In this document: in pieces, positions 45,427-54,200 of the stretch
How the letters are laid out: each line of letters opens with the position of its first letter
How positions within the stretch are numbered: position 1 is the first letter of the stretch
The notes under the pieces: model-generated
Seen by the model: the letters and a program-made list of their open reading frames with translations, nothing else
Told to the model about the DNA's origin: nothing
Database searches by the model: none
Assembly: GCA_951406725.2 (NCBI GenBank)
Contig: OX597843.1
Location: forward strand, 18,910,001-18,974,000
Direction: 5' to 3'
Length of the DNA stretch: 64,000 nt
Source of the DNA: Octopus vulgaris
Lineage: Eukaryota
Position numbers and translations under genes: made by a program

Positions 45427-45609
45427 AAAGAGAACGGTGGTGCGTTGATATGTCAGAGTAAAAAAGACAAGAACAGTTGGATGTTGGCAGGAGTGACACG
45501 AGAGACTTCTGATACTGATGGATGCAACCCAAATGCCTGGAATGACCCTGTCTATTATTGGGACACGGTGGAGCTTATGAAACAGCTTAATATATCAAGT
45601 AATACTTAA
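45427..45609 (+). CDS. Pseudo-protease terminal exon 7A
   Basis: Acceptor TTTTTGTTTCAG, phase 0; KENGGALIC (=GDSGGPLVC)..WMLAGVTRETSDTDGCNPNAWNDPVYY..NT*; AATAAA at 45659 and 45667. Confidence 0.88.
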   Translation, partial: KENGGALICQSKKDKNSWMLAGVTRETSDTDGCNPNAWNDPVYYWDTVELMKQLNISSNT

Positions 45610-45859
45610 TACATAGCCGGACATTCCCAAAACTCCTCTATGAAAAAGAGTAAAAAATAATAAAATAATAAAAACAGCAAATATATAATAAAAAAATAAT
45701 GAATGTTAAGAATGGAATGAGGATAATCTTGGATTATCTTATGAAGGATGTCTGTCTCAAGCTTTTTAAAGCAAGGACTTATATTCTCTGTCCCTTTGAT
45801 GAGTGCCGCTTTAGTGTATGTTCTGCTTCGCCATTTACACTTTAGCTTGTGGTCTAGCT

Positions 45860-48283: not shown

Positions 48284-51200
48284 ACATCTGATTGTATCTA
48301 TAGAGGGAAAGCGTTGACAGCCGCAAAAGTTTAAATATTCCCGCCACATGTCTTTTAGAACGGTGAATTATTATCGCCCACCACCACCGCACAATCATAA
48401 AAGATATTATTAATCAGATATATTGTGTTAATTTATATATATATATGTGTGTGTATGTAAATATATATGTATGTGTATATATATAAAGTGCATATATTTA
48501 TATATATGTGTGTAGACATGTATATATAATGCGTATATGTGTACATATTTAATGCGTATGTATATATATATATATATATATATATATATATATATATAAA
48601 ATGTGTGCATATGTGGTTGGATTGAGCTGAAAATATGCACATCTATGTTAAAAGTGCTAGCGAGTTTGCATGGCAACTTTGAATTTGCTCAATTGAAAGG
48701 CATGGCCTCTAGGGCAAAATTCCTCATCGTTTAAAATGTGGCCCGCGTAGATCCGAATGAAATCGGGGTATAATACCGAAACAAGTAAGACAATAATAAA
48801 CTCTTTTAATCCCGAGCAAGGCCGGGTATGTATGTCTAATTTTATATAATGAAGAAGGCGAAAGTTGATACAAATTGGATTTTTATGTAAAAAGGGGTTT
48901 AAATGAGGCTGGAGGGGATTAAAATTTACAGGAAGGGGTAACTTGAGGTAAGAACTTGATTGGGAGACATTTTGGGGTGCTACAGCGGTTGCTTTGGTGT
49001 GAAAACGAGGATTTTATTGATTTGGGGGGACAATTGAGGTCTAGATTGGACACCTTTTGCCCGATTTCTATCAAATTTTCAACATGGTAAAGTGGAAGCA
49101 GATATGAAATTTAAGCGCGAAATCTAATTTTTTATAAATGGGAGAGAGATCGATAGAGAAAGATAGATAGTAAGAGAAAGCGAGGGAGAGTCCGAGAGAA
49201 AGGAAGAGCAAGAGAGTGGGAAAGTGAGAGAGAAAGGAGAGAGAAACAAAGAGGGAGAATGTGGCGATAAGAAAGAGAAAGGAAGCAACAGAAAGTAACA
49301 ACCACACCCTTACCCGCGCGTAGATCGGGTCACCTTAAGCTAGTCTATAGTATAAAAGAGGCTTTGGGTCAAAATTGTGTGCACATTTTGCTACATCAGA
49401 GGTTGGCGGCCAGACCAATGGTCAGATCGAGCTGAAAATTGACAGAAGCATAGAAGACGTGATGAGGCAGAGAGTTGAGTAGGTTAAAACTCGCCATCTG
49501 GAAAGATGCGGTTGCTATGGTGAGAAGAGTGATTTTTCATCGATTCAAGGGGCCTCTAAGACTCTCCAGATTGGCGCGATTGGCATCTAACGCCGAAAGG
49601 CATGCACTTTGGGCTGTTGTGCTTTATAATCATGCATTTTGTCGCGAAATTCAGGCTACTGAGCAAAGATTTTTCCTTGTGAAAAACGAGTGCTTTTTGC
49701 CCTCATTTTCTTTTAAATTTTTTCTAATCAGATTGTAAGCCTTTTTAGAAAAAAAATATTATATCTGCATGCAGCACTTGAGGAGGGCTATAATGCACAT
49801 GCAGCACTTGAGGAGGGCTATAATGCACATTTTAGTCGACGCGAAATTTTGCTTTTAAGATCGAAAACGTTTGAAAATTAAACAAAAATGTTGAATTTTT
49901 CCTGGCAAGTAACGCTTCAAATGACGTCATCGTTGCGAGCTGCAGCTTTGCTGCAAAAGCATCATCGATTTTTTTCACGGCTATATAAACTTATTAAGCT
50001 GCTGGTGACTAATCTTTTTATAATAGCGAAAGGATTGAAACTGCATTAAACTTTGGCAAGCTTACCTTTACCTATTCTGAGTTACTGAGTTACTATTCTG
50101 ATTGTTGATTCCTTATTTTTTATCTTTGATACCGTTGTTTCATTTTAAGGATGCTTCTTTACCCAGCCATTATGATATTTCGACTGCTGTCCACTGTTTC
50201 AAATACTGTTTAGCATTGTCATTCTAGCCTTTTTTAAACACTCACATATGATTCGTCCCCAAAAATCAATCTTTAAATAAGAGTTTTGCTTCCACTAGCG
50301 AAAGCTATACGTATCTTTCAGGAAGTTCCATACCAATTTAACATTATGCAGCATTCACTGTTAGTTTATATGCACGCTATGTGAGAAGATAGAATAAAGG
50401 GGCTTTTGTTAGCTTTTCTCTCCGATGCCCTTCCTAACGCCAACCACTCCGTGAGTGTAGTGGGTGCTTTTTACGTGCCACCTGCACTGGTGCCAGGCGA
50501 GGCTGGCATCGGCCACGGTCGGATTGGTGCATTTTACGTTCCACCGGCACGGAAGCCAGTCGAGGCGGCGCTGGCATCGGCCACGATTCGGATAGTGCTT
50601 TTTACGTACCACCAGTCCAGGGGTCCTGGCATCTGCCGGGTGCCAGTCATAGGATTGGTTCAATTTCGATTTCGATTTCACTTGCCCGAACAGGTCTTCG
50701 CAGGCATGGGTGCCTGTCGTCGGATGAGGTCCGATATCGACTTCGCTTGCCTCAACAGGTCTTTGTGTGTCCAAGGGAGGAAAGGCATGCATAAGTGGTC
50801 TCGGTCGCTGGTCATTTCCTCAGTGAGGCCTAAAGTTCGAAGGTCGTGCTTCACCACCTCGTCCCAGGTTTTCCTGGATCTACCTCTTCCATATATATAT
50901 ATATATATATATATATATATATATATATATATACATACATACATACATATGTATATATATATATATATATATATATATATATACATATATATTATATATA
51001 TTTATATAGGCGCAGGAGTGGCTGTGTGGTAAGTAGCTTGCTAACCAACCACATGGTTCCGGGTTCAGTCCCACTGTGCGGCATCTTGGGCAAGTGTCTT
51101 CTGCTATAGCCCCGGGCCGACCAATGCCTTGTGAGTGGATTTGGTAGACGGAAACTGAAAGAAGCCTGTCGTATATGTGTATATATATATGTGTGTGTAT

Positions 51201-54200
51201 GTGTGTGTATATGTTTGTGTGTCTGTGTTTGTCCCCCTAGCATTGCTTGACAACCGATGCTGGTGTGTTTACGGTTCGGCAAAAGAGACCGAGAGAATTA
51301 GTATTGGGCTTACAAAGAATAAGTCGTGGGGTCGGTTTGCTTGACTAAAGGCGGTGCTCCAGCATGGCCGCAGTCAAATGACTGAAACAAATAAAAGAAA
51401 GAAAGAAATATATATATATATATATATATATATATATATATATATATATATATATATAAATTATCCAGTTATATATGGTCCTTAAAAGAACAAGATGTCA
51501 GGTTTAAAATTCACTGGAAGACCTTGGCCATGTGTAAACCTTACATCAACGGCAGTGGAAAGTGCGGTCTTTGCGATATAGAAAAATAGCTTATCTGGAA
51601 AAGTTCTTTAGACACCGCTACATGTCTAAATTCAAGAACTGAACTTTTTGAATCATGTCCATATATGACAAAATACTTGTTACGTTTTTAGGCCCACCTG
51701 CCCACCCAAGATCACAGATAGAACCTGCTTTTTTTTATTATGTCCATGTACAAGCTTTTCATATGTGTTAACATTTTAATACATTTTTATTGCTTGATAT
51801 ATATATTTTTTGTAATATTTTTCATTTTCCCCGTGACTATATAAGCTTGTAGTATTTCTATGTATATTAAATGTGCATATGTGTGCATGTGTATATATGT
51901 GTACGAATGTATGTATATATATATGAGTGTAGGACTGTATCTGTTGTAAAAGAGTGACTGTCATGTACATATCTCCTTCCTTTATACATATATGTATATA
52001 CGCTTGTATATCTGCAGTTGTAGGTGTGTTGATAGATAGAAGGGTGTATATGTATATATATGCACCTCTATACATATGTGTATATATGTGTAGTCATGTT
52101 TGCGGTGAGTGTGAATATATACCTGTACGAGTGTATACATATGTATATGTCTTATGTTTTTGTTTGTATATTTATTTGTATAAATGTCTGTATATAAATG
52201 TAGGCATATATTTTTGCGAGGATGATGTTGAGTATGCATATATACGTTTATATGTGTATATATTTGTACATATATATGCATATGCGTGTGTATGTATATG
52301 CGTGTGTATATATATGTATATATATATGAATATTCATACATGTGGCGAGTATGAATATATACCTTTTACGTGTGTGTATATGTATATTGTTTACGTTTTT
52401 GTATGAGTATATTTATTTCTATAAGTTCTAAGATACGTGTAAGCATTTTTCTATGTGAAGATGAAGTTATATATATATATATATATATATACGTACGTGT
52501 TGGTGTTTTTATATAGTTATATATATTTTTTATACATATATATGCATATACATGTATATGTATATGCGTATGTGTGTGCGTGTAGAGATGTGTATATGAA
52601 CATAATAATGCATGTATAGACACATATATGTGTGTATGTATATGCATGTATATATATATATATATATATACATATATATATACATACATATGTGTGTACA
52701 TGCATGTATATATACATGTCTGCGTGAGTGTGTACGTATGTAGATTTTATGAGCGAAGATTTCTATCTTTATGAGTATGTGATTGCATGTACTTTATGAA
52801 TTTTTTTATATATTTTATATTTTATATCTTCCACTATTATTTTTCCCACGCCTATTAGAGTAACTTCCCTTTATTCAATGGGTTTTTTTCATAGTGTTTC
52901 ACGTCTTAATAACTGATGAAAAATGCCGAGAAGCTCTCAGCTCCAGTATTTGAAACTCTGAGTATTATTATGACAATTAACTGATTGTTCTATATTATAT
53001 TCATAGATAAATTCCCCTATTTACATAATATCGAGGTCTCATTCATTCTTTTGTTGTCATATTATTGTTGTTATTATTATTATTGTTGTCGTTGTTGTTA
53101 TTATTATTATTATTATTATTATTATTATCATTATTATTATTATCATTTTTATTATTATTATATATATATATATATATATATATATATATGAAATATGGGT
53201 GTATGTATGCAGTATAAATGTATGTGTATGCGTGCATCTATGTATGTAATGTACGTGTATGCATGTGTATGAATATGATGTATGTGGAAGGGAAGTACGG
53301 TAGTATTGAGATTCTGATTTACATTTACGTTCTTCATGTGTTTCTTTTATCACCAACCAATCAAACAACCAACGAATGAATTATTATAAAATGTTTGTTT
53401 CAGAAAGAGAACGGTGGTGCGTTGATATGCCAGAGTGTAAAAGACAAGAACAGTTGGATGTTGGCAGGAGTGACACGAGATACTTTAAAACCTTCAGAAT
53501 GCATTCAAAATGCCTGGAATGACCCTGTCTATTATTGGGACACGGTGGAGCTTATGAAACAGCTTAATATATCAAGTAATACTTAATACATAGCCGGACA
53601 TTCCCAAAACTCCTCTATGAAAAAGAGTAAAAAATAATAAAATAATAAAAACAGCAAATATATAATAAAAAAATAATGAATGTTAAGAATGGAATGAGGA
53701 TAATCTTGGATTATCTTATGAAGGATGTCTGTCTCAAGCTTTTTAAAGCAAGGACTTATATTCTCTGTCCCTTTGATGGGTGCCGCTTTAATGTATGTTC
53801 TACTTCGCCATTTACACTTTAGCTTGTGGTCTAGCTCTAACACTAAACCCCAACCTAACCCCAAACCCTACTCCTAAACACTAATCCTAAATACTAACCT
53901 TAATCTCTAAAGTTAATCCCTAAACCCAAACCCTAATTCTAACCCTACCCGTAACCCTAAACTCTAACTTTAAACCCTAATCCTAATCATAAAACGCTAA
54001 CCCACAAACATTAAGTTAAAACTAAACCCTTCCTAAACCCTGGCCTTAACCTTAAACCCTAATCCTAATCATAAAACGCTAACCCACAAACATTAAGTTA
54101 AAACTAAACCCTTCCTAAACCCTGGCCTTAACCTTAAACCCTAATTCTAAACCTAAATCCTGACCCTAAAACCTAAAACCTAAAACCTAGGCCTAATCAC

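Follow-up and report, generated by a model that had tools for sequence, protein, structure and literature searches.

The last exon of an Octopus vulgaris gene encodes a loop on the substrate cleft of a predicted secreted trypsin-fold protein, one that has almost certainly become a catalytically dead scaffold, and this loop occurs in many versions that very probably constitute an allelic series under selection. The gene lies in a stretch of 64,000 nucleotides (nt), referred to here as the window (assembly GCA_951406725.2, contig OX597843.1, positions 18,910,001 to 18,974,000 of the forward strand), in which the coding part of the last exon is present twice, as exons 7A and 7B. A first-pass annotation of the window had read the pair as switchable alternative last exons that supply one binding scaffold with two loops. 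The allelic hypervariability is real and is stronger than that annotation saw, while the case for an exon switch is weak; exon 7B is probably a further allele that lies in tandem, and not a splicing switch.

The description of the two exons on which the earlier proposal was built was recounted and is correct. Both 7A (45427-45609) and 7B (53404-53586) are 183 nt long, open and closed by the same stop codon, and they differ at 16 positions, comprising one synonymous change (codon 9), two changes that together replace Lys with Val (codon 12) and 13 changes within codons 26-35, where eight of ten residues differ and the Cys is kept (ETSDTDGCNP in 7A and DTLKPSECIQ in 7B). The sequences 3' of the stop are nearly identical, with three differences in 300 nt. 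Such clustering exceeds chance, as 0 of 200,000 permutations placed 13 of the 16 changes within 27 nt, and against the background divergence of 1.13% between the surrounding copies (see below) the probability of the cluster is about 1e-18. Both exons have an AG acceptor and an AATAAA signal at +50. Within the 25 nt that precede the 7B acceptor there are three further differences (53381-53393), which are private to copy B, the public run X16 carrying the copy A states, and these changes could weaken splicing. After the stop lies an 82-nt CCCTAA-rich tandem repeat (45860-46350 and 53840-54170), which is longer in copy A and into which transcript contigs extend.

The locus was mapped in the window with the O. 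bimaculoides protein LOC106875555 (P0001), a single longer protein that is matched by the last exon, and comprises seven exons, the last in two copies:

4623..4701, + strand: exon 1, start codon and hydrophobic leader; 26 of 26 residues match the O. vulgaris model P0007
15083..15580, + strand: exon 2, small Cys-rich head and Thr-rich mucin-like stalk; 160 of 161 residues match O. sinensis P0002
26005..26161, + strand: exon 3, where the trypsin-fold domain begins; Pro occupies the His57 position and the 30s loop is variable; 42 of 51 residues match P0002
28124..28224, + strand: exon 4, variable 60s to 90s region; 22 of 33 residues match P0002
33613..33741, + strand: exon 5, Lys at the Asp102 position and a PIC motif, placed by alignment
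38038..38168, + strand: exon 6, single copy, with a variable last codon (R, D, Y, H) just before the 193-195 segment
45427..45609, + strand: coding part of exon 7A, in which Asn occupies the Ser195 position and the hypervariable 215-222 loop spans 45502-45531; spliced to exon 6 in contigs
53404..53586, + strand: coding part of exon 7B, an intact second copy that resembles an allele, with its loop at 53479-53508; not seen in the contigs of eight runs

All introns are of the GT-AG type with consistent phases, and the summed lengths give 425 codons. A search of the genome returned a single locus; a family of paralogs in this genome is ruled out, as matches occur at this locus only.

Loop versions in public samples

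The comparison of samples covers eight of 20 matching public runs, with the loops read by hand from difference tables. No run is on record as RNA; the joining of exon 6 to exon 7 in the contigs of six runs (X1, X2, X4, X12, X9 and X19) shows that spliced molecules are present. In organism A, which is taken to be the species of the window on account of X1, X1 and X2 carry the 7A loop, the X1 contig being identical to the window over the stretch and X2 having Val at codon 12, X9 and X19, which derive from two studies, carry ETSKFSGCIQ, X16 carries ETSDTQGCNL, and X10 contains two contigs, with ETSKPSECNQ and ETSDISGCIP, at depths of 500.6 and 495.7. Organism B (X4) has ETSDTPGCNP, organism C (X12) has DTSDTSGCIP, and the loop of O. 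bimaculoides is ETSDVSGCIP. The loop versions total nine, and the nine contigs that cover the loop comprise two with the 7A loop and seven with six other versions, none being equal to 7B. As the contigs of the six runs listed above continue into exon 6, the versions that they carry are spliced ones; the X10 contig stops three bases before the exon and that of X16 extends into the intron. Of the two junctions that would be expected from a switch, exon 6 joined to 7A is seen (X1 and X2), while 7B is found in none of the eight runs, with the reservation that contigs drop minor forms. Variation extends to the final codon of exon 6, which is R, D or Y in the runs and H in P0001, with R accompanying 7A in X1 and X2 and Y occurring in X9 and X19. 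RNA editing was ruled out as the origin of the differences, since most are not A>G and since such changes also occur in 7B itself and in X16, a DNA-sized run.

Across eight nucleotide versions, eight of the ten loop codons vary compared with three of 50 elsewhere in the exon (P 3e-6). Exon 7B shares its states with the expressed versions: K29, P30, S31, E32 and Q35 recur in an X10 version, and I34 and Q35 in X9 and X19. The markers at codons 9 and 12 do not sort by loop type, and those outside the loop give no division of the versions into A and B families. Codons 29 and 34 occur in all four combinations, although they lie within 18 nt, which is less than one assembly word, and thus either short-tract exchange or repeated mutation is needed.

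The tandem copy and the status of exon 7B

Exons 7A and 7B each sit in a tandem repeat unit of ~8 kb that contains neither exon 6 nor any other exon. The units and their junctions are as follows:

40223..48280: tandem copy A; its repeat-rich tail of 815 nt (47466-48280) is missing from copy B
48281..55875 (end approximate): tandem copy B
48274..48284: head-to-tail junction, at which two different dispersed repeats are cut mid-element, with ~9 unrelated bases between them and no N
55871..55875: second junction, deletion-like, at which an inverted-repeat element is cut and joined inside another repeat over a few shared bases

With the exon, indels and simple repeats set aside, the two copies differ at 61 of 5412 columns, or 1.13%, which is close to the heterozygosity of 1.22% given for O. 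vulgaris in the accessible part of 10.1101/2023.05.16.540928, and the divergence is therefore at the allelic level that characterizes heterotype false duplication. In run X16, which is large and DNA-sized and of which 76% was examined, one contig covers the whole stretch at a depth of 57.7, the other listed contigs ranging from 36 to 60. These observations, namely the 1.13% divergence, the shared loop states, the unsplit markers and the single contig of X16, are the reason for reading 7B as a second allele, and we are highly confident that it is not a fixed alternative exon. The alternative that the first-pass annotation had placed in brackets, that of diverged alleles brought together, fits best, given the allelic-level divergence and the position of 7B inside the loop series. 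As to how the second allele came to lie behind the first, the chance of a haplotype misjoin is about even, that of an uncommon real duplication falls somewhat short of this, and a fixed alternative exon comes far behind both.

In the sections of PMC9516828 consulted, side-by-side false duplications of alleles are described, usually with a gap between them. The octopus locus resembles such heterotype false duplications in having two allele-like copies adjacent to each other in a highly heterozygous region; in contrast with the typical case described there, no gap separates the copies, and the window as a whole is free of N. It could be argued that the tandem copy is instead genuine, break repair having inserted 8 kb of allele-like sequence after 7A in some chromosomes only, and we consider this explanation quite possible. 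The junction contains no N, although the assembly keeps a 100-N gap ~40 kb downstream, both of its repeats are cut mid-element around a short insert, an anatomy that suits a real rearrangement, and Argonauta has two near-identical adjacent models (170 of 185 residues); the same sections of PMC9516828 also mention a true allele-specific tandem duplication within one contig. It should be emphasized, however, that the divergence of the copies equals that of alleles, that a second event is required by the deletion-like junction at 55871-55875, and that no second copy is seen in the 76% of X16 examined. The junction anatomy is compatible with a real repair event and also with two haplotype ends having been joined. 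No counterpart of the copy A tail was found behind copy B, either within the window or in the 40 kb downstream. A repeat pair at 39015-39357 and 56289-56630 was considered as the junction site and rejected, as it lies elsewhere. If the copy is real, 7B would be mostly silent behind the poly(A) signals of 7A, be used at a low level or act as a conversion donor, and the allelic hypervariability would hold just as it does if 7B is a misjoined allele.

The original proposal, that of one gene with two binding loops supplied by 7A and 7B as fixed alternative last exons, is improbable. Both exons are intact with an acceptor and a poly(A) signal, and the loops form rough D29/P35 and K29/Q35 groups, of which X10 has one each at equal depth. 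The absence of 7B from the runs, which contain at least six further loop versions in a series that includes 7B, argues against a switch, as do copies only as different as two alleles, markers outside the loop that fail to separate the groups, the four combinations of codons 29 and 34, the covariation of the exon 6 end with loop type and the X16 depth, which looks single-copy in the 76% examined. On the other side, and counting against 7B as simply another allele, low-level use of 7B is possible given that contigs drop minor forms, the runs may be pooled, the examination of X16 extends to 76% only, and the X10 pair could be one A-type and one B-type exon.

A trypsin fold without its catalytic triad

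The protein comprises, in order, a hydrophobic leader, a four-Cys head, a Thr-rich stalk and a trypsin-fold domain. The signal peptide in exon 1 was called by eye, with no predictor; three of the head cysteines lie in exon 2 and one is split across the exon 1/2 junction, and the stalk is 42% Thr. The trypsin-fold match has an Atlas feature score of 0.97 and template modelling (TM) scores of 0.75-0.78 to trypsin-family models, and the relatives P0004 and P0005 are matched by Pfam Trypsin (PF00089) at 20.9 and 44.7 bits, both over the cut-off. No match was obtained with Pfam on single exons (0 of 4), the head domain had no usable Atlas match, a PDB search with exon 3 returned nothing relevant and a short-protein search with 7B gave no candidates; haptoglobin was a weak PDB match.

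In an alignment to an active domain, the triad positions His57, Asp102 and Ser195 are occupied by Pro, Lys (Asn or Arg in relatives) and Asn. By its sequence the protein is thus a serine protease homolog (SPH) and not an active S1A protease, and the part of the first-pass annotation that predicted a catalytically dead scaffold stands, with the trypsin-fold match and the substituted triad both pointing to it. The hypervariable loop, numbered from an enteropeptidase match and the active-domain alignment, corresponds to about residues 215-222 around Cys220 and is longer than in active trypsins. By alignment, residue 216 is Thr and residue 226 is Val, and in elastase-type enzymes residues of this kind at these positions close the S1 pocket. 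Since the pocket of the octopus protein looks blocked, the variable surface would be the cleft rim and not the pocket wall to which the loop had earlier been assigned. This placement of the variable residues is based on alignment, as the AlphaFold2 folds were of low confidence, with a predicted local distance difference test (pLDDT) of 32.7 for P0001 alone and 31.5 for a two-sequence alignment.

Variation is not confined to the one loop, as had been supposed. Compared with O. sinensis P0002, exons 3-4 differ at 20 of 84 residues, while exon 2 differs at one of 161 (P 1e-9), and the differences fall in the 30s, 60s and 90s regions; in P0004 there are further changes near residues 97-102, at residue 192 and in the 140s. 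The 30s, 60s, 90s, 140s and 190s loops ring the cleft in S1 enzymes. Both the packing of 13 changes into 27 nt, which drift at ~1% does not produce, and the alteration of several separate loops while the stalk is spared lead us to infer selection. The earlier claim of positive selection is thus borne out to the extent that variation is far above background and selection-like; no formal dN/dS >1 was obtained.

Several observations weigh against the interpretation of the loop as a selected series on a trypsin fold. The pairwise proportions of nonsynonymous (pN) and synonymous (pS) differences between 7A and 7B are 0.457 and 0.346 in the loop and 0.089 each over the exon, and 13 of 14 extra codon states, counted by hand, change the residue, which is not significant against ~22% synonymous sites. 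Hypervariability is not seen in a distant relative of the same layout (12 sequences, four variable sites, none in this loop), and the PF00089 score of P0001, at 19.4 bits, is just below the cut-off of 20.6. It might be proposed that the loop is an unconstrained insertion and a local hotspot of mutation or micro-conversion, in which variety is not selected for. Consistent with this, several codons differ at two or three bases, the loop exceeds the length seen in active trypsins and pairwise pN/pS is near 1. Neutral drift, however, predicts ~1% and not 48% divergence, variation extends to separate loops in exons 3-6 but spares exon 2, and the third positions of the two invariant loop codons are constant across the eight nucleotide versions, making a hotspot an improbable explanation.

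Relatives with the same layout, either orthologs or close to it, are LOC106875555 (P0001), O. sinensis XP_029652884.2 (P0002), Argonauta hians Ahia01_000545200/545400 and the P0005 cluster, all of which are uncharacterized or misnamed; P0005 has no Cys220 and shows no hypervariability. The O. vulgaris model P0007, which exons 1 and 3 match, is a 97-residue mis-splice in which exon 2 is skipped and the frame is shifted, and P0002 is partial, beginning in intron 1 and ending after exon 4. With public models broken or misnamed in this way (P0002, P0007), the gene has so far been invisible. P0004 (MBK3505369.1), from a 387-nt contig, is annotated as a hypothetical protein of Campylobacter fetus but is a spliced fragment of the octopus gene (exons 4-7), and likely reflects contamination of that record. 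The A. hians models P0006 and P0053 are neighbours with an identical last exon and different exons 4-6, and this locus may be duplicated, or falsely duplicated, too. Intron 1 contains a near-complete non-long-terminal-repeat retrotransposon frame (8678-12064; endonuclease, reverse transcriptase and zinc finger) that contains a single in-frame stop near 9368, and its end recurs as a partial copy at ~4831-6030. Short frames at 21128-21427, 28792-29211, 31929-32765 and 43401-43601 resemble GIY-YIG/Penelope-type remnants by eye, with null Pfam results for the two tested.

Possible function and comparison with known systems

We favour, with some reserve, a model in which a secreted, mucin-stalked, triad-less trypsin-fold protein has diverse cleft loops because selection maintains many alleles for binding a changing non-self partner, 7B being an extra allele. 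After secretion and O-glycosylation of the stalk, the folded dead domain would be presented in mucus or fluid, where a partner protein may be gripped across the former active-site rim by the 30s, 60s, 90s, 140s, 190s and 220s loops; rare alleles would be favoured, and short tracts would be reshuffled between alleles. The likeliest partner, at a little under an even chance, is a protein of a microbe or parasite, such as a surface ligand or a protease inhibitor, a preference that agrees with the part of PMC1761132 consulted, where SPHs such as azurocidin and Limulus factor D have roles in defence. A gamete or mate protein appears a less likely partner, and a prey target less likely again, on a par with all other candidates.

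A different source of the arms race is conceivable, in that the protein may be a salivary (venom gland) or reproductive secretion that is opposed by prey or the other sex and not by microbes, and this has a fair chance of being correct while falling below even. Catalytically dead S1 proteins have reproductive roles in other animals. S1 peptidases are abundant in the salivary glands of coleoids, whose venom includes serine proteases, according to the consulted portion of PMC4619613. Many coexisting alleles, however, would suit frequency-dependent selection better than prey capture, and the ortholog accessions are absent from the examined part of the salivary proteome supplement of PMC7693380, in which the accession series is present, although this is a weak argument. 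Those accessions were likewise not found in the examined part of a skin mucus proteome supplement (PMC10138644), and an ink proteome supplement gave no match, in a comparison that had no established control.

We found no paper on this gene in the open-access literature. The six loop versions in one organism (the window and six runs), set against a background of ~1%, would signify a strong and current arms race, and make the gene a concrete candidate for hypervariable recognition in cephalopods. They also call for caution, since what looks like a tandem pair of 'alternative exons' may, at loci of this kind, be a pair of alleles.

An SPH is an S1 domain that lacks one or more catalytic residues, and azurocidin and Limulus factor D are examples with defence functions in the consulted part of PMC1761132. 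The octopus protein resembles these, the crayfish masquerade-like protein and haptoglobin in that a trypsin fold has lost its triad in a secreted protein with a binding or defence role, which in the octopus is putative; in contrast with them, it has no clip domain and has lost all three triad residues and the 42-58 disulfide. In clip-domain SPHs a six-cysteine clip domain precedes the S1 domain. The octopus head has four cysteines and no Pfam clip match, so that the protein, judged on its predicted domains, is not a clip-domain SPH and would work like an SPH binding protein. To our knowledge, allele-level hypervariability of cleft loops is not a feature of SPHs.

The locus could be taken further as a counterpart of the major histocompatibility complex (MHC) built on a dead protease, with dozens of trans-species cleft-loop alleles reshuffled in short tracts and with some chromosomes stacking two last-exon alleles in tandem, either as two specificities or as a conversion donor, but we regard this as speculative and rather unlikely. 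The fold of the octopus protein, whose function is putative, is unrelated to those of the highly polymorphic recognition loci that it calls to mind, such as MHC, snail FREPs and gamete lysins; as in these systems, however, replacement changes are packed into the predicted binding surface, states are shared between species and there are signs of short-tract shuffling.

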